From: Breznakia sp. PF5-3
GTDB lineage: Bacteria > Bacillota_I > Bacilli_A > Erysipelotrichales > Erysipelotrichaceae
DNA length: 32,000 nucleotides
Assembly (NCBI RefSeq): GCF_029504745.1
Contig: NZ_JAQFIQ010000001.1
Coordinates: 90,001-122,000 of the forward strand
Direction of reading: 5' to 3'
The notes under the pieces are model-generated. The model made no database searches. It was not told the DNA's origin and worked only from the letters and a program-made list of their open reading frames with translations. Position 1 is the stretch's first letter, and every line of letters begins with the position of its first letter. A program made the position numbers and the translations under genes. This document shows, piece by piece, positions 2,946-32,000 of this stretch.

Positions 2946-3514
2946 TTAAAATTGGAATAACAGGAACAATTGGTTCAGGAAAAAGTTATGTAGCAAATTT
3001 ACTAAATGAATATGATATTCCTGTATTAGATTTAGATAAAGTTGCTAAGGAAGTTCGTAATAATGAAGCAAAGAAAGAAATTATTGCATATTTTGGAGAT
3101 GCGATCTTAACCGAAGGAAATATCAACCCCAAAAAATTAAGTAATATTATTTTTGAAAATGATAAAGCACGGAAAAAATTAGAATCTTTCATCCATCCTT
3201 TTGTGTTAGAGAAAATGAATGATTTCTTTATATCAAATAAGACTTACGAATATGTTGCAGTAGAACAAGCTATTCTTTTTGAGTTAGGATGGGAGAAATA
3301 CTTTGATCAAATTTGGTTAGTAGATTGTTCAAAGAAAATTGCAATTGATCGGTTGATAAAGTTTCGCGGATATGAAAAAGCGACTGCTGAAGCTATTATG
3401 AATACACAGTTTTCAAATATAGAGAAACGAAAACTTGCAGATTATGTTATCATTAATAATGATGGGAAAGATTCTTTATATAAACAAATAGATAAGATTT
3501 TAAAAAAGGAGTAA
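2942..3514 (+). CDS. coaE: Dephospho-CoA kinase
   Basis: The P-loop GITGTIGSGKS lies at the N-terminus. I prefer the ATG at 2942, which forms an ATGA overlap with the mutM stop at 2943-2945 and gives MIKIGITG. The ORF-track start at 2927 is in the same frame and remains possible. Confidence 0.9.
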   Translation: MIKIGITGTIGSGKSYVANLLNEYDIPVLDLDKVAKEVRNNEAKKEIIAYFGDAILTEGNINPKKLSNIIFENDKARKKLESFIHPFVLEKMNDFFISNKTYEYVAVEQAILFELGWEKYFDQIWLVDCSKKIAIDRLIKFRGYEKATAEAIMNTQFSNIEKRKLADYVIINNDGKDSLYKQIDKILKKE

Positions 3515-3517
3515 GGT

Positions 3518-4693
3518 ATGTTGAAGGTTGAAGATAAAGTAAGAGTTGAAATACATGGTGTGATCAATGAAGAATCACATTCTATTTTAACTATGCTTTA
3601 CTATCCTTTGATTAAGGATAGGGCATATATTTTATATCAGCTTTTAATTGCTCTTTCTACAAAAAGATCAAAATTTGAAAACCATTTAATCCTCCATGAA
3701 TTAAGTGGTTTTTCTATGGAAGTGATTGAGCAAGAACGAAAAACTTTAGAAAAGTATCAACTTTTAAAAACATATTATGATCCTCAAAAGAAACAATATT
3801 TATATGCGATTATTCCACCTAAAAGTGGTAGTGATTTTTTAGAACACGAAGTATTCGGTAGATTATATTTAAATCGTTTAGGAGAACAAGTTGTTAAGTT
3901 CCAAAAAATTAATTTCTTAGCAAATACAGTAGATAAAACTAGATTCAATGATATATCTGAGTGTATATCAGACGTTTTAAAAGACGATTGGAATGAAGCT
4001 TTTGAAAAAACATATTTAGAAGTGAAAAGTGAAATTCAAAATAGTAAACAGAAACAGACAATCGCTTTTAATTATGATGAACTTTTAAAAGATTTGTCAG
4101 ATATTATATGGCCACGGAAAAATCGTAGCGAAAAACAATTAGAAGAAATCGGACAGATTGCAACCGTGTACGGAATTAGTCCAAAGCAAATAAAAATCTT
4201 AATAAGTCGTTCAGTGGATAAACGAAAAAATAGTAAAACATATGGGAAACTTGATATTAAAGCATTACGAGAAAAGGCTGCTTCATCAAAAGCTAAATTT
4301 GAAACAGAAGAGGTTAATATTTATAAATGGCCACCAATTCGCTTCTTACAAAATAAACAAAATGGGGTTCCCGTATCTAAACATGATGCCGAAACTATTC
4401 GTATTTTATTAGAAGAGTATCGTTTGATACCCGAAGTATGTAATGTTTTGATTGAATATGTGTTGAATACAAGTGAACAAAAGTTTATAAGAAACTATGT
4501 AGAAAGCATTGCAGCAAGCTGGGTAAGGGCAAAAATTGACACATATGAAAAAGCGCTTGTGCGAATTCATGGAACTAATATAAAAAAGAATAAGTCTACA
4601 GATTTAAAAGAGGAAAAACAAGATAATCCATTAAGCGATGAAGAAAGAGACTCTTTGATTAAACGCTTTAATTCAGTAGAGGGGGATACATAA
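3518..4693 (+). CDS. dnaB: Replication initiation and membrane attachment protein (Bacillus DnaB type with DnaD-like C-terminal domain; not the replicative helicase)
   Basis: It lies immediately upstream of dnaI, as in Bacillus. The C-terminal region (NYVESIAASWVRAKIDTYEKAL) resembles the DnaD/DnaB_2 domain signature. The SD AAGGAG is embedded in the last coaE codons. The family call rests on synteny plus motif memory, not on a search. Confidence 0.65.
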   Translation: MLKVEDKVRVEIHGVINEESHSILTMLYYPLIKDRAYILYQLLIALSTKRSKFENHLILHELSGFSMEVIEQERKTLEKYQLLKTYYDPQKKQYLYAIIPPKSGSDFLEHEVFGRLYLNRLGEQVVKFQKINFLANTVDKTRFNDISECISDVLKDDWNEAFEKTYLEVKSEIQNSKQKQTIAFNYDELLKDLSDIIWPRKNRSEKQLEEIGQIATVYGISPKQIKILISRSVDKRKNSKTYGKLDIKALREKAASSKAKFETEEVNIYKWPPIRFLQNKQNGVPVSKHDAETIRILLEEYRLIPEVCNVLIEYVLNTSEQKFIRNYVESIAASWVRAKIDTYEKALVRIHGTNIKKNKSTDLKEEKQDNPLSDEERDSLIKRFNSVEGDT

Positions 4694-4694
4694 A

Positions 4695-5633
4695 ATGAAA
4701 AAAATTATTTTTAATGCAGAAATAAATGATGAATTATCAAAAGAAAAGAAAGCTCTTTGTAAACAATTATTACTTAATCAAAAAATTCAAAAATTTTTAA
4801 GAACATATAAACTTTCTGAATCTTTTGTTTATGAAAATACATATTTATTAAATGATTATCAAAAACGAATTTCCCTTTGTGATGATTGTGCAGGACTTGC
4901 ATATTGTAAACAAGAGGTAAATGGGTATATATTATCCATTCAAATACAAAGTAATGATGTTGAAAAAATTTTGGTTCCTTGCCACTATTTACAGCAACTA
5001 GACAGTTCGATTGCACATCAAAATCAATTAATTTTTAATCATATGAGTGCAGATCAATTACAATATCGTTTTTCATTAATTGATATTGCCAATGAAACTG
5101 TTGAAAACCCTTCATATGCAAGAATTGCCACTATTTTAAAAGAGTATATTAGCAAACATGATCCGAAAAGTTTTTTTATTTGTGGAAAACCAGGTGTTGG
5201 TAAAACGTACTTGGCTTGTTGCTATATAAATGAAGTTGCCAAAAAAGGAATTAAATGTGGATTTGTTCATGTACCAACTTTAATTGCTGATTTAAAAACA
5301 TTGATGTACGATAATGCTGCATTTAAAAAAGTTATTTATAATTTACGTCGTGTAGATGTTCTTATTCTTGATGATATTGGCGGGGAAAGTGCATCTACTT
5401 GGAGTCGGGATGATATCTTATTGCCACTTTTGAATGATCGAATGGAGAATCGACGAAAAACGTTATTTACTAGTAATTTTAACTTTGATGAAATTGAAGA
5501 ATTTTATCGATTAAAAAGCAAGGCAATCAATGATAAAATCGGTGCAAATCGACTTGTGGAAAGAATGAAATCGCTTGCAGATGAAAAAGTCTTGAAAGGG
5601 AACAACAGAAGAGTGGAAAATAGTAGTAATTAA
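4695..5633 (+). CDS. dnaI: Primosomal helicase loader DnaI (AAA+)
   Basis: Walker A is GKPGVGKTY and Walker B is VLILDDIGGE. The N-terminal part is Cys-rich (CDDCAGLAYC), consistent with the DnaI zinc-binding domain. The start is 1 nt after the stop of the preceding gene. Confidence 0.87.
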   Translation: MKKIIFNAEINDELSKEKKALCKQLLLNQKIQKFLRTYKLSESFVYENTYLLNDYQKRISLCDDCAGLAYCKQEVNGYILSIQIQSNDVEKILVPCHYLQQLDSSIAHQNQLIFNHMSADQLQYRFSLIDIANETVENPSYARIATILKEYISKHDPKSFFICGKPGVGKTYLACCYINEVAKKGIKCGFVHVPTLIADLKTLMYDNAAFKKVIYNLRRVDVLILDDIGGESASTWSRDDILLPLLNDRMENRRKTLFTSNFNFDEIEEFYRLKSKAINDKIGANRLVERMKSLADEKVLKGNNRRVENSSN

Positions 5634-5688
5634 AGTCGAATGGTGTTATAGTATATATTGATTTTGAAATTATGGAGGTGCTTCAAGT

Positions 5689-6651
5689 ATGGTGAAAAAA
5701 ATTGGTGTGCTGACTTCTGGAGGAGATGCTCCAGGAATGAATGCTGCAATCCGTGCCGTAACCAGAGTAGCTACAAACATAGGTCTTGAAGTATATGGGA
5801 TTTATGATGGATATCGTGGAATGGTTGATGGTAAAATCAAACAGTTAACAAGAGAAAGTGTATCTGATATTTTGGATCGTGGAGGAACCATTTTGGGTTC
5901 TGCTCGATTACCAGAATTCAAAGACATTGAAGTTCGTAAAAAAGCGATTGAACAACTCGATAAATTTGGCATTGAAGCGGTCGTTGTGATCGGTGGAGAT
6001 GGAAGTTATCGAGGTGCACAAGCGCTTACGGATATGGGTGTTAATTGTATTGGGTTACCAGGAACGATTGACAACGATATCTCAAGTACAGATGAAACAA
6101 TTGGTTTCAGTACTGCACTTAATACAATTGTAGAAGCAGTTGATAAATTGCGTGATACATCAAGTTCCCATCATCGCTGTTCGATAGTCGAAGTTATGGG
6201 GAACCGTTGTGGAGATTTAGCTTTATTTTCAGGATTATCTTCTGGGGCTGAAATTGTTATAACTTCAGAAACAGGATTTGATGAAAATGAAGTATTGGAT
6301 CGTTTGCGCGAATTTGATTTAGTAAAGAAAAAGAATCATGCTTTGGTTATTATTTCTGAGAAAATCACGGATGTTGAAGTATTTGCTCGAAAAGTCTCAC
6401 AACATACAGGCTTCTCGGGTAGAGCTACCATTTTAGGTCATGTACAGCGTGGAGGATCTCCTACACCTGATGACCGTGTACTTGCTTCACGTATGGGTGA
6501 AAAAGCTGTTGATCTACTAATGCAAGGTGTTGGTGGACAATGTGTTGGTATACAGCATAGTGAAATTGTTGGTGTACCAATTGAAGAAGCACTCAATATG
6601 CCTTCAAAATCACGTAAAGATTTACAAAATTTATTTGACCGATTAGTCTAA
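5689..6651 (+). CDS. pfkA: ATP-dependent 6-phosphofructokinase
   Basis: Motifs IGVLTSGGDAPGMNAAIR, IGGDGSY and PGTIDND are present. The SD GGAGGTG at 5674-5680 lies 8 nt upstream of the ATG. Confidence 0.97.
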   Translation: MVKKIGVLTSGGDAPGMNAAIRAVTRVATNIGLEVYGIYDGYRGMVDGKIKQLTRESVSDILDRGGTILGSARLPEFKDIEVRKKAIEQLDKFGIEAVVVIGGDGSYRGAQALTDMGVNCIGLPGTIDNDISSTDETIGFSTALNTIVEAVDKLRDTSSSHHRCSIVEVMGNRCGDLALFSGLSSGAEIVITSETGFDENEVLDRLREFDLVKKKNHALVIISEKITDVEVFARKVSQHTGFSGRATILGHVQRGGSPTPDDRVLASRMGEKAVDLLMQGVGGQCVGIQHSEIVGVPIEEALNMPSKSRKDLQNLFDRLV

Positions 6652-6661
6652 AGGGGAAAAC

Positions 6662-8074
6662 ATGAAAAGAACAAAAATTATTTGTACGATTGGGCCAGCA
6701 ACAGAAAGCCCTGAAATGCTTAAAAAATTAGTAGATACAGGAATGAATATCACACGATTGAATTTCTCTCATGGTGATTATGAGGAGCATGGTAAAAGAA
6801 TTGCGACTATTCATCGCATTAATGATGAAACAAATGCCAATATTGGTATTCTATTAGATACCAAAGGTCCTGAAATTCGTTTAGGAGACTTTGCTAATGG
6901 TGCAGAAACATACGAAAAAGGTGACATTGTAACGATTGTTCGCGATGAAATGTTAGGAACACATGATAAATTCTACATTCAATGTCCAGAAGTATTTGAT
7001 GATGTAAGTGTTGGGGGAACGATTCTAATTGATGATGGAAAAGTTCGTTTAACTATTATTGAAAAAGGTGATGGAGAATTAACATGTCGTATTGAAAATC
7101 CTGGTGTTTTAAAAAGCCGTAAAGGTTGTAATGTACCAAATGTTAAATTAAGCATGCCGTTTATTTCACCAAAAGATGATAGTGATATCCGTTTTGGTTG
7201 TAAGATGAAAGTAGATTATATTGCTGCATCATTTACACGTAGAAAAGAAGATATCCTTGCAATTAAAAAAATTCTAAAAGAAGAAAATTGTGAAGATATT
7301 CAAATCATTGCGAAAATTGAAAACCAAGAAGGTTATGACAATTTAGATGAGATTTTAGAAGAAGCAGAAGGAATCATGGTTGCTCGTGGAGATCTAGGAG
7401 TTGATGTATCATTTGAAAAAGTTCCTATTTACCAAAAACAAATGATTGCTAGAGCAAATGCCTTTGGTAAACCAGTTGTTACAGCAACACATATGTTGGA
7501 AAGTATGCAACAAAATCCAAGACCAACAAGAGCGGAAGCAAGTGATGTTGCCAATGCTGTTTTGGATGGAACAGATGCAATTATGTTATCAGGAGAAAGT
7601 GCAGTTGGTATGTATCCAATTGAAGCTGTTCAAACGATGAATACAATTGCGCAAGGAATGGAAGAAATTCTTCCTTATCGTGAAAGATTACAACAATCAA
7701 TTGATACTAGTAAGAGAACTAAAGAAGATGCAATTGGAATTGCAGTTGCAGATACTGCATTAGCGATGGATGTAGCAGCAATCGTTGTATTTACTTCAAG
7801 TGGGACTAGTGCAAGAAGAATTGCTAAATTTAGACCTGTATGTCCTGTATATGCAGCAACATTTGATGAGCGTACAAGACACAGTTTAGCAATCAACTGG
7901 GGTGTCTCTGCTGTCACAATACCTAACATTAATGAACGCGATACAGAATCAGAGTTAGCAAGAGATGTTGCGAAAAGCTTTGGTTGCAAAAAAGGTGATA
8001 CGATTATCGTTGTAGCTGGATATCCACATGGAACAGGTGCAACAAACTCAATGAGAATTATTGAAGTTGAATAA
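6662..8074 (+). CDS. pyk: Pyruvate kinase
   Basis: Motifs KTKIICTIGPA, NFSHG, DTKGPEIR and MVARGDLG are present. It follows pfkA in the classic pfkA-pyk operon. Confidence 0.97.
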   Translation: MKRTKIICTIGPATESPEMLKKLVDTGMNITRLNFSHGDYEEHGKRIATIHRINDETNANIGILLDTKGPEIRLGDFANGAETYEKGDIVTIVRDEMLGTHDKFYIQCPEVFDDVSVGGTILIDDGKVRLTIIEKGDGELTCRIENPGVLKSRKGCNVPNVKLSMPFISPKDDSDIRFGCKMKVDYIAASFTRRKEDILAIKKILKEENCEDIQIIAKIENQEGYDNLDEILEEAEGIMVARGDLGVDVSFEKVPIYQKQMIARANAFGKPVVTATHMLESMQQNPRPTRAEASDVANAVLDGTDAIMLSGESAVGMYPIEAVQTMNTIAQGMEEILPYRERLQQSIDTSKRTKEDAIGIAVADTALAMDVAAIVVFTSSGTSARRIAKFRPVCPVYAATFDERTRHSLAINWGVSAVTIPNINERDTESELARDVAKSFGCKKGDTIIVVAGYPHGTGATNSMRIIEVE

Positions 8075-8097
8075 AGCGCTGAAATCAGCGTTTTTTT
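8074..8097 (+). terminator. Rho-independent terminator of pfkA-pyk
   Basis: The arms CGCTGA (8077-8082) and TCAGCG (8085-8090) form a hairpin. It is extended by flanking A/T pairs and followed by T7 at 8091-8097. Confidence 0.8.
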
Positions 8098-8168
8098 AAC
8101 TAAGTTGAGGTAGCGAATTTGGTTTATAAATGTTAGAATAGAAAGTACATAAAATATGGGGTAAGCGT

Positions 8169-9305
8169 ATGAAACTTAATCTTAGTCAAGAAACAAAAAC
8201 TAGAGTACTTACTGGAGCACTAATTGCATTAATTGCGATTGTCATATATTTTTTCTTTTTGAATTTCACAGGTATTGAAAAAGCAATCAGTAATCTTTTT
8301 AAAATTATGTTTCCTTTTATTGTTGGATTTGTAATAGCTTTTTTATTAAATCCTTTTATGATGTTTTTGGAGAATAAAGCATTTGCTAAGTTGAAACTAA
8401 AACAACAGACGAAGCGAAATATTGCTGCTACTATTTCAATCATTGTTGGAATTATAGTTGTTGGTGCCTTGATGTTTTTAATCATTTACCAAGTTAGAGA
8501 AAGCATTGAAAGCTTGTTGAGTAATTATGATGTCTATTTAAATTCTTTTGAGACCTTTGTTGAAGATGTTTTCCAAAGATTTAATTTAGATATGGATGAA
8601 GTCGCTCAAATAACCCAATCTAGTGAAGATTTTTTATCTATGATTACAGGTACTGCATCAAAATATGCACCAAAAGTATTGGGGATGGGATTTGATTTCA
8701 TTGCAACCTTATTAAAAATTTTAATTGGAATTATAGCTGGTCTATATTTATTAATGGACAAAGAAAAATTTCTATATCAATGCAAAAAGCTAAACTATGC
8801 GATTTTCCCAAAAGAAATTGCAATCTATATAGCTAGATTCATGCATAAGTTGCGTAATATCTTTTATGATTTTATTGTTGGTAAAGCAATCGATTCTTTT
8901 ATCATTGGAATTATATGTTATGTAGGTATGACGTTACTAGGCTTTGAATATGCTGCACTTATCAGTGTTATTGTAGCAATCACAAACATGATTCCCGTAT
9001 TTGGACCTTTTATAGGTGCTGTACCAGGAGTATTTATTCTATTAATTGTTAATCCACTTCATTCGTTGTATTTCATTATTTTCATTTTTGTTTTACAACA
9101 ATTTGATGGTAATTTCTTAGGTCCACTTATCTTAGGGGATAAATTAGGTATTCCTAGTTTTTGGATATTATTTTCTGTAACAGTAGGTGGAGCATTGTTT
9201 GGAATCGTTGGGATGTTTATTGGAGTTCCTTCATTTGCTGCCATATATTTCTTAGTAAAAGAATTTGTTGATTATCGTTTAGCGAAAAAGAAAATTGATT
9301 TATAA
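8169..9305 (+). CDS. AI-2E family transporter (UPF0118/PerM-like permease)
   Basis: This is a 378-aa polytopic membrane protein. It has the family-typical segment [20 protein letters not shown] followed by [14 protein letters not shown]. The substrate is unknown. Confidence 0.75.
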
Positions 9306-27248: not shown

Positions 27249-27869
27249 ATGGCGTTAAAGAAAAAGAAATTAAAAACACCAAAAAATACTGGACAAAAGA
27301 AAACTAACAAGAGAAGACCAAATTGGATATTGCGTTTTACACTTATCGTCATCGCAGTTCCTTTAATTATCTTAGCTTGGGTTTTAATGACCTCTTTAGA
27401 AACATCGGGTGAACCAGTTGTTGGAAATCGTTTTGATAACCAATTGGATCCTGCAATTACTGAAAAAAAAGTAGATGAATTAAAAGGGAAGTTTACATAT
27501 GCTGAAGCTGAAAATGTAGAAGTAAATTTAAAAAGTGCTACTTTAAGAATTACCATTGATGTAGCTGATGCAACTACGGATGAGCAAATTACAGCAATTA
27601 TGAATGATGTATACGCAAAGGTAGATGAAACACTACCAATTGCTACGTATTTCACAAATAAAAAAGCAGTAAAAATGTACGATCTTGAAATAAATGTATA
27701 TAATTATATACCTGATGATACAAATAGAGCTGGATATATTTATCATCTTTTAACAAAAAATGCTGGAAATGATGGACCAGAACATTCAATTCCATCACAA
27801 CCAAAAAATCAATCTACAGCAGATGATTTAAAGAAAGCACCTAAAAAAGGAGAACAAGTCGGACAATAG
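27249..27869 (+). CDS. Hypothetical membrane-anchored protein with a basic N-terminus and one TM helix
   Basis: The SD AAGGAG (27237-27242) precedes the ATG. The N-terminus MALKKKKLKTPKNTGQKKTNKRRPNW is followed by the hydrophobic FTLIVIAVPLIILAWVLMTSL and a soluble part of about 150 aa. I recognise no family. Confidence 0.7.
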   Translation: MALKKKKLKTPKNTGQKKTNKRRPNWILRFTLIVIAVPLIILAWVLMTSLETSGEPVVGNRFDNQLDPAITEKKVDELKGKFTYAEAENVEVNLKSATLRITIDVADATTDEQITAIMNDVYAKVDETLPIATYFTNKKAVKMYDLEINVYNYIPDDTNRAGYIYHLLTKNAGNDGPEHSIPSQPKNQSTADDLKKAPKKGEQVGQ

Positions 27870-27879
27870 TCCGATTTTT
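27859..27879 (+). terminator. Rho-independent terminator spanning the stop codon of the preceding gene
   Basis: TCGGAC (27859-27864) pairs with GTCCGA (27869-27874) around a 4-nt loop, followed by T5 at 27875-27879. The TAG stop at 27867-27869 lies across the loop/stem junction. Confidence 0.7.
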
Positions 27880-29212
27880 GTTATTAAATATGATGAAAAA
27901 AAATGATATTTATGAAGGTACATGTAGTGATTATACATATGATGGTCTTGGGATTGTAAAAGTTGATGGTTTTTCAGTATTTGTTAAGAATGTCATTATT
28001 GGTGAAACTATTTTATTTAAACTCATTAAAATAAAGAAAAATTATGGCTATGGACGTATAATTGAGATTAAAAACCCCTCCATACACCGCACAACACCAT
28101 TCTGTGAGTATTTTGGAAAATGTGGGGGGTGTCAATTACAGCATATGGATTTAGAAGCGCAAAATGAATTAAAAGAAAATATAGTCATCAATAATATTCG
28201 CAGAATTGCTCATAGTGATGCTGAAGTTAAACCAATACTCAATGGACAGCCAAGAGCATATCGTAACAAGGCACAATTTCCATTAACAGCAAATCCATAC
28301 GCTCTTGGCTTTTATCGTATTCATTCAAATGAAATTGTTGATATTACTATGTGTCCTATACAAAGTGACAAGATAAATACACTATATCAATACCTGAGAT
28401 TACATTTAAAATCAACTTCTTTTGTATCTAAATTACGTCATATACTTATTAAACATGCATTTCATACAGATGAGATCATGTTGGTATTTATCGCTAGTGA
28501 TAACATACAAAATAGTATGGAAGAATTTATAAACAAACTAACAAAAGAACAGAATATTACTAGTGTTATTTTAAATGTAAACCGCTCTACAAATAATGTA
28601 ATTCTGGGAAATGAAGAACATTTACTTTTTGGTAGTAATACGATCAATGAATCGCTAATGGGATATACCTTTCAAATTGCTTCCAAATCGTTTTATCAAG
28701 TCAACCCAGAGCAGACAAAGGTTTTGTACGAGAAAGTATTAGAGTATGCAAATATCACTAAAAATGACACTGTAATTGATTTATACTGTGGAGTAGGAAG
28801 TATATCTTTATTTCTTGCGAAATCAGCAAAGCAGGTAATTGGGATTGAAATCGTTGAAGATGCGATTACAAATGCAAAAGCAAATGCGAAAATGAATCAT
28901 ATTAATAATATTGAATTTGTATGTAGTGATGCTGGTACATATGCTGAATATATGGTAGCGAATAATATTACTGCAAATATTGTTGTTCTAGATCCACCAA
29001 GAAAAGGATGTGATGATAAAACAATTCAAAGTGTTATTAAGATGCACCCTGAACGTATTGTTTATGTATCTTGTAATCCTGCTACACTAGCAAGAGATAT
29101 TGAAAAATTTGAACAATTTGATTATAAATGTACCATCGTACAACCCGTTGATATGTTTCCACATACATTTCATGTGGAAACGGTCTGCTTGATGTCTAGG
29201 AAAGAGAAATAA
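27878..29212 (+). CDS. rlmD: 23S rRNA (uracil-C5)-methyltransferase, RlmD/RumA family
   Basis: It has an N-terminal TRAM-like domain. The [4Fe-4S] cysteines are CEYFGKCGGCQLQH plus MCPIQ. The SAM site is DLYCGVGSISL, LDPPRKG is present, and the catalytic motif is YVSCNPATLARD. The start is uncertain (TTG at 27878, or ATG at 27890 or 27893) and no clear SD is visible. Confidence 0.9.
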   Translation: MLLNMMKKNDIYEGTCSDYTYDGLGIVKVDGFSVFVKNVIIGETILFKLIKIKKNYGYGRIIEIKNPSIHRTTPFCEYFGKCGGCQLQHMDLEAQNELKENIVINNIRRIAHSDAEVKPILNGQPRAYRNKAQFPLTANPYALGFYRIHSNEIVDITMCPIQSDKINTLYQYLRLHLKSTSFVSKLRHILIKHAFHTDEIMLVFIASDNIQNSMEEFINKLTKEQNITSVILNVNRSTNNVILGNEEHLLFGSNTINESLMGYTFQIASKSFYQVNPEQTKVLYEKVLEYANITKNDTVIDLYCGVGSISLFLAKSAKQVIGIEIVEDAITNAKANAKMNHINNIEFVCSDAGTYAEYMVANNITANIVVLDPPRKGCDDKTIQSVIKMHPERIVYVSCNPATLARDIEKFEQFDYKCTIVQPVDMFPHTFHVETVCLMSRKEK

Positions 29213-29360
29213 ATAGCGAAGTGTTGCGTATTTACTGGATTTTTTTGAGATTAGGCAATAGTTCATGAAAGTCCGTATTTCTTATTTTGAAACATATCTA
29301 CTGCAAAAACGGTCAGAGTGTTTAGGCAGTGGATTAGATGTTATAGAAGGAGGCGTTTTC

Positions 29361-30134
29361 ATGGAATTTGATTTGAGAACTTGTGATGCAGCATACAACT
29401 TCGTTCTTGATTTTATGGGTATGACTCCTGATGAGTACATCACAGAGAGTATTATAAATTGTGAGAATGACTTTGAGACATTTTGGAGCCGGAATATTAA
29501 ACGAATAAAATCAATTGATATTTCTGGGGTGAGGCTGATGGCATTTCATGTTGTAGGTTCAATTGATGAATGTTGCGAGATTAAAGAAAATGGTTTGATG
29601 AATTTACAAAGTGTTCTTTCGGAAGAAACCATCTTAAAGAAGCTATTAGAAAAAACAGGTGTCATATTTGATATTCCAAATAAGCTCGTGAGCTGTAAAG
29701 AGAATAATTATGACATTGATTATGAGAAATACAAAGGCCATCATTTCTTGACAGGAATGGATGAAAAGTTATACCGTGTTGCTCATCGAGTTTATTATGA
29801 TTTTTGTGTAAATGGATTCATGGCTAATGATAATGTGTTCAATTATGGTACTAACATTCACGAAAGGCCTGAATTCTTAATGACACTCGGAGAATTATTT
29901 CCGCAGGCAGAAAAAGTTGAAAGTTTCTGGAAAACAAAAGCTAAGAGTTATAGAGTTGACTTCTATGCGACCATTGACCAAGTTCACCGATTCAATTTTG
30001 AACTTGATGAGTATAGAGACCCTCCTTACGAGGATTGGGTTGACCTTGATGATGATATGAAACTTAAAAAATGGATGTTATCACACATTATTGATAGAGC
30101 GCATGGCGATTTGGGCATACAATTTTATATATAA
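29361..30134 (+). CDS. Hypothetical soluble acidic protein, unassigned family; gene A of the terminal cassette
   Basis: An ATG at 29361 lies 7 nt after a perfect SD GAAGGAGG (29346-29353). The track start at 29265 has no SD. The product is 257 aa with no hydrophobic segment and is rich in D/E/F/Y. I recognise no motif. Confidence 0.7.
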   Translation: MEFDLRTCDAAYNFVLDFMGMTPDEYITESIINCENDFETFWSRNIKRIKSIDISGVRLMAFHVVGSIDECCEIKENGLMNLQSVLSEETILKKLLEKTGVIFDIPNKLVSCKENNYDIDYEKYKGHHFLTGMDEKLYRVAHRVYYDFCVNGFMANDNVFNYGTNIHERPEFLMTLGELFPQAEKVESFWKTKAKSYRVDFYATIDQVHRFNFELDEYRDPPYEDWVDLDDDMKLKKWMLSHIIDRAHGDLGIQFYI

Positions 30135-30211
30135 AAGATGATGTGATAATTCCGGTAAATCAAATTATTGATATTTCAGAATTATAAAAGCATATAAAAG
30201 GCGGTGTGATT

Positions 30212-30763
30212 ATGGGTGAATATGTAAAAAAGAAAAAATACATGGTATTCCAAAGTGTAGAATCACTTCAGCAAGCTGTTAATGTTCTAAATGATGCGGC
30301 AGCTGCGGTAAATGATAAATCACGTACAATTAGAGAAAGCGCAATCCCTGAAGTGCTTGCAGGAGTATTAGGTGCTGGTATTGGCGGAGTAGGTTCTTTT
30401 GCTGCACTTTACGGGTTGGGTTCTGTTGTAGGATTATCAGCAGCAGGTATAACATCAGGACTTGCTGCAGCAGGTAGCATTGTTAGCGGCGGTATGGTTG
30501 CAGGTGTATTCGTACTTGCAGCACCTGTAGCAGCCCTTGCAGCAGCAGGAGTAGGATTTGCTACACACTTAAAAAATAAACAGTTAAGACAAGAAAAAGA
30601 ACGTTTGTATAAAGAAGCTTTGAAAAAGCATGAAGCAATTATTCAAGCTTTGAAATCTGAGGTTGATGCTGATAAAGAGCGTCTCGATTACTTACAGAGC
30701 TTAAATATTCTTCTTACGCAAATAATAAAAGACTTAAAGAAGGATTTGGGTAAGGCGGCATGA
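30212..30763 (+). CDS. Hypothetical glycine-zipper membrane protein with a C-terminal coiled coil; gene B of the terminal cassette
   Basis: An ATG at 30212 lies 7 nt after the SD AAGGCGG (30198-30204). A 73-residue uncharged core (nt 30350-30568) contains 17 Gly and 18 Ala. A K/E/L-rich heptad-like tail of about 64 aa follows. Confidence 0.8.
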   Translation: MGEYVKKKKYMVFQSVESLQQAVNVLNDAAAAVNDKSRTIRESAIPEVLAGVLGAGIGGVGSFAALYGLGSVVGLSAAGITSGLAAAGSIVSGGMVAGVFVLAAPVAALAAAGVGFATHLKNKQLRQEKERLYKEALKKHEAIIQALKSEVDADKERLDYLQSLNILLTQIIKDLKKDLGKAA

Positions 30764-32000
30764 GCAAATTCAAGTACACTGAAACAGAACAACAATTTAA
30801 TAATGCTTTGAATCATCAGTCAAAAGAATTAAGTTTAATTAAAAGACCTGATATGACATCAGTAGAAGTTTGCATTTCTGAGAGCGAAGAACTACTGAAG
30901 GAGTTAGGTATCTCTACAGAGAGTATGCCTGAAGTGGTTAACCCTACATTTCAAAGGGGGATGGTAGTTCCTACGTGGGAGGAATTGTGCATTCAAGCTG
31001 AACAGGAAGTTGGTTCAACAACAGATTTAGAATCCCTTTTTACAGATGAAGAATTGAGAATGAATCAAGTTGCTCTACGTGCTTTGAATATCGATTACAA
31101 TAATATTCATAAGCTTGATAAAATAGATATTACTATTTGTGCAACTGCAGGTATTTTGGGCGTTGTTGTTGATATTCTACTAATAGGAATTCCGAAAAAA
31201 ACACCAGAAGGTTTAAAAGGTGGGCCACTTTCCAATTATGTAAGAGACTGGTTTAATCAAAGATTTCCAGAAGTAGAAATGGAAAAACTCTCCAATTCAA
31301 AAGTAAGCAAAGTATCATTTGATGCTCAGGATAATCGCCATACTACAGAGTATGTTACCGGTTTATCTGCTTACTATCATAGATTGTTATCGCTTGGGCA
31401 TGACCCTATCCTTGGATTGATATTTGGAGTTTATGACATTTTGACTGATAAAATGACGACGATTGATAAAACTGGCAAAATGGTATCTCAGGTTATGGAA
31501 AACTATGCAGACCGAAAAGAAAGTGATATTTTTGCTGCAATTGCTAAGCAGATTATTCATTTCAAATCTGACATTACAACGTCTATGGGGCTACCGGCTC
31601 CTTTGATGGCATTATTTAACTTACTCCAGTTTGGTAGTATTGGAGAAGAAGAACAGATAATTGCTGAAATTGTGCAGGGAATGTATTACGAAGGTTATGA
31701 TTTCATTCATTTTTGTAGTATGTCAATTCCGACAATGATAATTGAAGTAATCATCAGATTAGGCTATGGCATTAAGAGGATTAAAGAAGGTAATTCTATA
31801 AAGGACTCGATTCCTTTTTCATTAAATCGAGAAAAACATCCAAAGCTGAGCACTATGTTATTCATTGGACATTCTGCGGCTACTGCTGTAAATGCTGGAA
31901 AGGTTTACTTCACCAAAAATCCTATGGCAATAAACTATCCTCAATGGATAACATTTGCTAAATATTTATACAAACAATTGAAATGGGTGTTGTTAGAGAA
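30760..32000 (+). CDS. Hypothetical large protein, 3'-truncated by the window edge; gene C of the terminal cassette
   Basis: It is absent from the ORF track because no stop occurs before base 32000. I translated it by hand. The ATG at 30760 overlaps the gene B stop (ATGA), and 413 codons are open to the edge (MSKFKYTETEQQFNNAL...KQLKWVLLE). One strong TM candidate lies at residues 123-145 (ITICATAGILGVVVDILLIGIP). Several shorter hydrophobic or amphipathic stretches follow. Confidence 0.8.
   Translation, partial: MSKFKYTETEQQFNNALNHQSKELSLIKRPDMTSVEVCISESEELLKELGISTESMPEVVNPTFQRGMVVPTWEELCIQAEQEVGSTTDLESLFTDEELRMNQVALRALNIDYNNIHKLDKIDITICATAGILGVVVDILLIGIPKKTPEGLKGGPLSNYVRDWFNQRFPEVEMEKLSNSKVSKVSFDAQDNRHTTEYVTGLSAYYHRLLSLGHDPILGLIFGVYDILTDKMTTIDKTGKMVSQVMENYADRKESDIFAAIAKQIIHFKSDITTSMGLPAPLMALFNLLQFGSIGEEEQIIAEIVQGMYYEGYDFIHFCSMSIPTMIIEVIIRLGYGIKRIKEGNSIKDSIPFSLNREKHPKLSTMLFIGHSAATAVNAGKVYFTKNPMAINYPQWITFAKYLYKQLKWVLLE

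Follow-up and report, generated by a model that had tools for sequence, protein, structure and literature searches.

A BnzB-family gene with a short BnzA-like partner beside rlmD in Breznakia sp. PF5-3: a probable two-gene variant of Bunzi without TerB

A small gene cassette lies at the end of a stretch of 32,000 nucleotides from Breznakia sp. PF5-3 (contig NZ_JAQFIQ010000001.1, positions 90,001 to 122,000 of the forward strand), which is referred to here as the window and in which three genes, designated A, B and C, follow the methyltransferase gene rlmD. Gene C encodes a protein of the BnzB family, and gene B, which overlaps it, encodes a minimal partner of the BnzA type without TerB. This pair was acquired horizontally, at the rlmD (rum) insertion hotspot of the Bacillota chromosome. 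Considered together, and with a probability of roughly 80%, the two genes constitute a TerB-less two-gene variant of the defence system Bunzi, horizontally acquired at rlmD, which we infer to act through membrane-directed abortive infection. Bunzi, composed of BnzA and BnzB, is one of the systems that Millman et al. (2022) described, and protects against phages; the verified system is that of Ligilactobacillus animalis DSM 20602, consisting of a BnzA of 546 residues that contains TerB and a BnzB of 487 residues. The coordinates of all features are collected in Table 1.

Translation of the forward strand from position 30760 to the end of the window yields 413 codons and zero stops, confirming the large open reading frame (ORF) that an earlier interpretation of this DNA, made from its letters and referred to here as the sequence-only reading, had found to be missing from the automatic ORF list. 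The reason for this omission is that the program does not list ORFs running off the end of the source sequence. The frame had also been taken to be intact, and a full-length protein of 453 residues (P0001) was retrieved from a public protein collection that is 100% identical over all 413 residues, so that only the last 40 codons lie outside the window. The start codon is fixed by the close homologues, all of which begin with MSKF(K/R)YTE. Among 17 loci from different hosts, the ratio of nonsynonymous to synonymous substitution rates (dN/dS) is 0.065 in the core of the protein, 0.21 over its first 117 residues, and 0.17 for the C-terminal helix, and by these low values gene C is a functional gene under purifying selection and no chance ORF.

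The membership of gene C in the BnzB family is demonstrated by both profile and pairwise comparisons. The PADLOC model of BnzB (PDLC03834) matches gene C with an expectation value (E) of 3.8e-61 for the fragment within the window and 3.1e-62 for the full-length protein, in which residues 9-435 are aligned to profile positions 54-502 of 504, corresponding to 89% of the profile. In a BLASTP comparison, P0001 shares 29% identity over 256 residues (E 8e-20) with the verified BnzB of L. animalis, aligning to the first 399 residues of that protein, and the PADLOC model also recognizes each of 60 diverse full-length family members. The family is large, as an exhaustive search against 1.84 billion cluster representatives returned 945 clusters (at 50% identity) with E of 1e-3 or below, including 163 with E of 1e-30 or below. 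The sequence-only reading had regarded the family of gene C as unknown, a statement that the match to BnzB of Bunzi overturns; its observation that no P-loop, nuclease, protease or lipase signature is present agrees with the lack of any Pfam match. Gene C has no match in NCBIfam or PHROGs either, none of the 60 family members contains a Pfam family when scanned individually, the Protein Data Bank (PDB) contains no match to BnzB by single sequence or by profile, and a search with two distant BnzB proteins against viral contigs found nothing.

The partner, gene B, is organized as a short N-terminal helix, followed by a glycine-zipper hydrophobic region and then a coiled-coil tail. Its Kyte-Doolittle hydropathy, calculated over 19 residues, has maxima of 1.86, 1.56 and 2.28 within residues 42-121, values on which the transmembrane helices characteristic of BnzA are predicted for gene B. 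Repeats of the GxxxG and (G,A,S)xxxG types, exemplified by GVLGAGIGGVGSFAALYGLGSVVGLSAAGITSGLAAAGSIVSGGMVAG, can be read inside these hydrophobic helices at the level of the motif only, and no Pfam Gly-zipper family matches gene B. The PADLOC model of BnzA (PDLC03833) matches the membrane region with E 4.6e-10, a match confined to profile positions 313-411 of 544, and the pairwise match to BnzA of Escherichia coli has E 5e-6. In addition, the segment GSVVGLSAAGITSGLA of gene B matches GSVVGMSAAGLTSGLA of E. coli BnzA, and LYKEALKKHE resembles LLQEAIKRHE of the verified L. animalis BnzA, with the shared pattern LYxEAxKxHE; the motif of the tail recurs in the fusion protein P0289 as well as in the extra B' ORFs described below.

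The association of the two genes was examined in two samples of loci. At the junction in the window, the ATG of gene C occupies positions 30760-30762 and gene B ends with TGA at 30761-30763, resulting in an overlap of four nucleotides in which two bases are common to both codons; the ATGA overlap had been recognized from the letters, together with a count of three shared bases that should be corrected to two. The first sample comprises 92 close loci containing relatives of gene C with 61-92% identity, some of them reached through homologues that are 90% identical. A homologue of gene B lies directly upstream of gene C in 88 of these loci, and B is better conserved than C (72-94% vs 61-92% identity). 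Among the 90 loci in which both genes could be placed, the overlap of four nucleotides is found in 28 (as ATGA in 26 of them), B and C are separated by 2-3 nucleotides in about 20, and 30 have a gap of 230-490 nucleotides. Most of these wide gaps accommodate an extra small gene (64-148 residues) with one hydrophobic segment and a LYKKALAKHNAVIKEL coil (LYKKALAKH); given the single hydrophobic segment and the same coil, this gene is paralogous to the C-terminal half of gene B. The table of Millman et al. (2022) records "another hit to gene A" in some Pseudomonas loci. With the overlap present in 28 of 90 loci, and with B and C separated by a further small gene in 30, the fixed B:C stoichiometry that the overlap had been thought to imply is plausible but not universal.

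The second sample comprises 80 metagenomic loci with 30-68% identity to a distant BnzB. The upstream partners in these loci fall into size classes of about 173-198, 290-400, and 490-589 residues, and the overlap of four nucleotides is present in about 20 of 59. A scan of 45 partner proteins, namely 44 from the distant loci and gene B of the window, yielded matches to BnzA in 37 (best E 2e-116) and TerB in 15, while TerB is absent from three short partners (173-188 residues) that were scanned one by one. Natural fusions were also encountered. Two proteins of about 620 residues, P0285 and P0289, combine a gene-B-like N-terminal part with BnzB; in P0289 (619 residues), residues 16-167 align to residues 28-179 of gene B with 31% identity (E 5e-15), and the C-terminal part is BnzB. 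A further protein, P0376 (691 residues), fuses a glycine-zipper region to BnzB. The pairing of B and C is therefore obligate, in agreement with the earlier proposal that gene C is tied to a glycine-zipper neighbor which its homologues retain, and the adjacency counts, overlaps, partner matches, and natural fusions support a physical or functional complex of the two proteins. The sizes of the partners, the presence of TerB in only 15 of the 45, and the fusions indicate that the conserved core of the system consists of BnzB and the zipper/coil module, to which TerB is an optional addition.

The conservation within BnzB was assessed with an alignment (A1) of 60 family sequences that are 24-65% identical to P0001. 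Eight residues are invariant, namely D188, H207, H214, G223, H267, D271, P281 and M308. A further set of positions is at least 90% conserved, comprising D123, D138, P145, G201, R208, G213, D215, P216, G219, D226 and G230, followed by S270, T274, G277, P279, Y309, G312, Y313, D314, H317 and R333, and, towards the C-terminus, N378, G380, K381, P388, N392 and W396. The verified BnzB of L. animalis likewise has D188, H207, H214, H267, D271 and D314. Candidate catalytic or ligand residues had been proposed before any alignment was available, and the pair H214/D215 withstood the comparison, H214 being invariant and D215 at least 90% conserved; the trio D190/R193/H194 did not, since residue 190 is Q, R193 and H194 are not conserved, and D188 is invariant instead. 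The AlphaFold2 model of BnzB built with A1 has a mean predicted local distance difference test score (pLDDT) of 93.6 and a predicted template modeling score (pTM) of 0.85, and is mostly helical, with a C-terminal helix of 55 residues. Foldseek comparison of this model with the PDB revealed no similar structure (best E 0.9, TM-score at most 0.16), and comparison with the predicted viral proteins of BFVD gave no match (best E 0.045, TM-score at most 0.23).

Two further parts of BnzB had been described from the letters, and both descriptions are upheld. The N-terminal region is acidic, with a net charge of -11 over residues 1-122, and in 112 close homologues the sequence entropy of its first 117 residues exceeds that of the core about threefold. 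It is followed by the transmembrane candidate ITICATAGILGVVVDILLIGIP, whose Kyte-Doolittle value of 2.48 is enough to span a membrane, other helices of BnzB remaining below the threshold. This segment is the most hydrophobic stretch of 19 residues in 55 of 60 family members, with a mean of 2.14, and the AlphaFold2 model places a helix at residues 121-142.

Based on these characteristics, a mechanism can be proposed for the variant. Gene B would be anchored in the membrane by its glycine-zipper helices, and its cytoplasmic coiled coil, with the motif LYKEALKKHEAII, would bind BnzB, a putatively helical protein whose predicted fold has no solved relative and which, with its hydrophobic helix and invariant His and Asp residues, may act as a sensor or switch. 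Phage infection would change the state of the complex, and the switched complex would permeabilize or depolarize the membrane, thereby aborting the infection. The TerB of published BnzA proteins would, in such a scheme, be an optional N-terminal add-on outside the core machine. Because the variant has no TerB, sensing would have to sit in BnzB, perhaps in its variable N-terminal region, or in the core complex.

Several points weigh against the reading of the pair as a membrane-directed Bunzi variant. The damage to the membrane, the binding of B to C, and the trigger are all inferred. The hydrophobic helix at residues 121-142 of BnzB may span the membrane or be buried in the fold. The glycine-zipper stretch of the fusions P0285 and P0289 is not hydrophobic, which suggests that membrane insertion of B is not universal. 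The resemblance of gene B to BnzA is limited, as it spans just 18% of the BnzA profile and its pairwise match to the verified BnzA is weak (E 0.019), and no Pfam TerB (PF05099) was detected in gene B or gene A at E of 1 or below. The TerB-less pair is carried by Veillonella, S. mitis, S. suis, Peptoanaerobacter, Catenibacterium and Atopobium, none of which is represented among the Bunzi instances of Table S18. Furthermore, the E. coli candidate for Bunzi is marked "x" in Millman et al. (2022), where the verified L. animalis system is marked "v", and this mark is read here as meaning that no defence was shown.

The principal competing explanation assigns the effector function to BnzB itself, as a metal-dependent or ligand-gated protein acting through its His and Asp residues, with gene B serving only as an anchor or regulator. 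It can be entertained tentatively. The invariant or near-invariant residues D188, H207, R208, H214, D215, D226, H267, D271, D314, H317, N378 and K381 would suit an active or ligand-binding role of this kind, and most conserved polar residues lie in loops or at helix ends of the AlphaFold2 model. It is also favored by the fusions P0285 and P0289, in which the B part has lost its hydrophobicity and the BnzB part is intact, and by the variation of the partner N-termini, which contain no additional domain, TerB, ankyrin, or a helix-turn-helix (HTH) domain, alongside a constant BnzB. However, neither Pfam, nor sequence searches of the PDB, nor structural comparison relates BnzB to any enzyme, the verified L. 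animalis protein retains neither D215 nor H317, and the higher conservation of B than of C is unusual for a mere anchor.

An extended form of the Bunzi reading is rated as doubtful. According to it, the zipper protein of 183 residues and BnzB would form a self-contained sensor-effector, in which TerB and other N-terminal domains of the partner are interchangeable; BnzB would represent a new fold, being either a latent membrane-inserting protein or a metal-dependent enzyme based on His and Asp, and the pair would spread between classes of Bacillota by riding on, or next to, serine-recombinase elements that target the 3' end of rlmD. In the case of latent insertion, BnzB would hide its hydrophobic helix in the manner of soluble pore-forming toxins.

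The genomic setting documents the horizontal acquisition of the pair. The window contains the core genes polA, pgi, a P-type ATPase gene, two LytR-CpsA-Psr genes, pcrA, ligA, camS, gatCAB and then rlmD, and the cassette begins directly after rlmD. About 24 related loci have rlmD upstream of B-C, and this placement is found in gut Bacillota (L001), Veillonella (L006-L009, L017), Enterococcus camelliae and metagenome-assembled genomes (MAGs; L013-L015), and the S. mitis/oralis group. Cassette DNA from Enterococcus, Veillonella, Clostridia, and Bacilli MAGs shows 82-92% identity between hosts, and the rlmD proteins of the same hosts are 33-42% identical. The shared segment extends from about 75 nucleotides before the rlmD stop to 80-300 nucleotides past the gene C stop. 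At its left side, blastn aligns window positions 29138-29341 with 87% identity to E. camelliae (L015), and homology to L001 begins at 29141, with the remaining rlmD DNA being 64-72% identical or unmatched; the corresponding coordinates in the relatives are 8247-8560 in L001 and 4256-4564 in L015. In four loci (L002-L005), a mobile element that terminates in a large serine recombinase has integrated 42 nucleotides before the rlmD stop, immediately to the left of the cassette, and its breakpoint, at position 8276 of L001, falls within the region where the shared DNA starts. The 3' end of rum is known as a cross-species hotspot for integrative and conjugative elements (ICEs) and prophages (PMC5053989; also cited for this is PMC13651849).

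The cassette, which occupies the same site in different classes of Bacillota, possesses no recombinase of its own, and no convincing flanking direct repeats (att sites) were detected around it in three hosts. A scan for promoters and terminators was uninformative, with no terminator-like site between genes A, B and C. At 0.34-0.38, the cassette has a slightly higher G+C content than the flanking core genes (0.31-0.34; window 29000-31500), which is consistent with a foreign origin and is by itself weak evidence for it. Apart from the rum site, copies of B-C occur on a plasmid of Limosilactobacillus mucosae and at the end of an Acutalibacteraceae prophage beside lysis genes, and GmrSD lies near B-C in Veillonella.

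The constant occurrence of the pair in mobile or hotspot contexts (rum site, plasmid, prophage end) could also be explained if it served no defence, and instead acted as a toxin-antitoxin-like maintenance, superinfection-exclusion, or membrane-stress module riding rum-site elements. This explanation is improbable. Gene B is weakly similar to spanin and hemolysin-type membrane proteins, and phage protection by the TerB-less variant is a prediction from sequence; against this, the PHROG matches of gene B are not significant (E 0.008-0.8), a homologous pair has been verified as anti-phage, and contexts of this type typically carry defence genes.

The view that the three genes encode the subunits of a single cassette in which A is integral, which was how the sequence-only reading had treated them, has the support of a common strand, short gaps, the lack of terminator-like sites, and co-transfer as a block whose DNA is 83-92% identical among the closest loci (L001-L005, L013-L016), but it is largely refuted by the distribution of gene A and retains very little probability, as gene A accompanies B-C in the closest loci only, is degraded in Veillonella, is missing from about 80 of the 92 B-C loci, occurs without B-C in mobile elements and defence islands, is frameshifted in the window with loss of conserved C-terminal residues, and has a sole PADLOC match, to PtuB, that arose by chance. 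Gene A is no subunit of the B-C system.

As a gene in its own right, gene A belongs to a family of about 132 proteins, typically of 275 residues, in which no Pfam domain is found and whose conserved start corresponds to the ATG at 29361. DNA alignment with L001, L013 and L015 indicates that one G is missing from the window copy between positions 30118 and 30119, resulting in a premature stop at 30132-30134 in place of the ancestral stop at 30185-30187; according to the protein alignment, about 22 C-terminal residues are lost in this way, conserved positions among them. The frameshift reflects either a pseudogene or a sequencing error. Homologues of gene A without B-C adjoin GmrSD, an nSTAND3 NTPase, a caspase-like protease, serine recombinases, or ICE genes, and such stand-alone copies (L173-L181) are located in ICE-like elements and defence islands of Clostridium perfringens, Fusobacterium, and Enterococcus cecorum. 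The residues H63, D69, C71, R143, D147 and E171 are invariant in the family, and this pattern suggests that gene A may encode an enzyme. Its predicted fold is confident (pLDDT 92), Foldseek comparison with the PDB gave nothing significant (the top structure being pertussis toxin S1, E 2), and a profile search of the PDB was empty. An assignment as a nuclease similar to PtuB of Septu was considered and rejected, because a PtuB match appears in 1 of 49 family members and is attributable to chance. Gene A is possibly a single-gene defence or anti-defence candidate.

Table 1. Location of the features discussed, in window coordinates unless a related locus is named
Feature	Location	Strand	Evidence
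rlmD/rumA-type 23S rRNA (uracil-5)-methyltransferase	27878..29212	+	Pfam tRNA_U5-meth_tr, E 6e-29
Left edge of the segment shared among hosts: last ~75 nt of rlmD and spacer before gene A	29138..29360	+	
Gene A, accessory gene outside the B-C system, frameshifted copy	29361..30187	+	
Gene B, short BnzA-like partner, 183 aa, without TerB	30212..30763	+	
Glycine-zipper hydrophobic region of gene B, residues ~45-120, 2-3 membrane-grade segments	30344..30571	+	
Coiled-coil tail of gene B, residues 121-183, motif LYKEALKKHEAII at 132-144	30572..30760	+	
ATGA start/stop overlap of genes B and C	30760..30763	+	sequence
Gene C, BnzB homologue, residues 1-413 of 453, cut by the window end	30760..32000	+	
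Variable, acidic, helical N-terminal region of BnzB, residues 1-117	30760..31110	+	
Conserved hydrophobic helix of BnzB, residues 121-142, ITICATAGILGVVVDILLIGIP, near-invariant D123 and D138	31120..31185	+	
Conserved polar core of BnzB (invariant D188, H207, H214, H267, D271)	31321..31710	+	alignment A1
Extra small gene between B and C	L011 6659-6889; L012 1306-1653		
Extra small gene between B and C	L041, L053, L060, L066 ~5657-6004; ~20 more loci		

Individual loci provided additional observations. In L012 (PV036426.1; region 3081-6357), a B-B'-C module is situated at the end of an Acutalibacteraceae phage genome, beside the endolysin, a position typical of prophage-carried defence cargo; its neighbors include two large unannotated genes, of 523 and 588 residues, which may be serine recombinases. 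In L010 (MN270261.1, deposited as Streptococcus "phage" phi-SsuFJNP8_rum), positions 6429-8424 of the S. suis rum-site element hold the last ~78 nucleotides of gene B before an intact gene C, with a tet(M) segment just upstream of the remnant; from the truncated gene B and the adjacent tet(M) segment, this B-C looks like a decayed copy. The same record also contains type VII secretion genes, and for this reason it probably extends beyond the prophage. Within the window itself, an ORF of 206 residues at 27249-27869, between gatB and rlmD, is rich in lysine at its N-terminus, continues with a hydrophobic segment, and matches no Pfam family.

Compared with the verified Bunzi of L. animalis DSM 20602, the pair of the window has the same two-gene operon structure, with the gene for the membrane protein first and bnzB second, a BnzB that is homologous over nearly its whole length, and a partner in which a glycine-rich transmembrane region is followed by an LxxEAxKxHE coiled coil. 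In contrast, the partner in the window has 183 residues vs 546 in L. animalis, and both TerB and an N-terminal part of about 300 residues are absent; the verified L. animalis BnzB, for its part, has neither the D215 nor the H317 conserved in the clade of the window. Protection has been verified for the L. animalis system, whereas the TerB-less pair is known from sequence data. The window pair thus lacks TerB, one defining feature of Bunzi as published.

Other known systems are more remote. SngA of Shango and DinB of Dionysus are linked to canonical Bunzi by TerB and the idea of "membrane surveillance" only; they differ in that no BnzB homologue is present there, and no TerB is present in the window pair. 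The transmembrane effectors of CBASS and Pycsar, as well as AbiZ and RexB, offer a functional analogy, that of a small protein with transmembrane helices and a larger cytoplasmic partner, and their proposed outcome is membrane depolarization that stops phage growth. Unlike those systems, the window pair has no nucleotide-signal synthase, and there is no sequence or structural relationship between them. The glycine-zipper part of the distant fusion P0376 matches subunit A of PADLOC PDC-M09 (E 4e-10), a match that gene B of the window does not have.

As gene C is a clear member of the named BnzB family, the finding is not categorically new. Its significance concerns the mechanism of Bunzi, which is listed as unknown in reviews up to 2026, membrane surveillance via TerB being the sole proposal. 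A confident structural model without a solved relative, a set of invariant residues, natural fusions that predict a B-C complex, and more than 120 natural B-C pairs from the loci collected are now available as resources for the family. Detection tools that demand a full-length match to BnzA may undercount Bunzi. With 183 and 453 residues, the two proteins represent a minimal workable system. The TerB-less clade, which is large in gut and oral Bacillota, indicates that the BnzB machine can exist without TerB, and the question of how Bunzi works shifts from TerB to BnzB.

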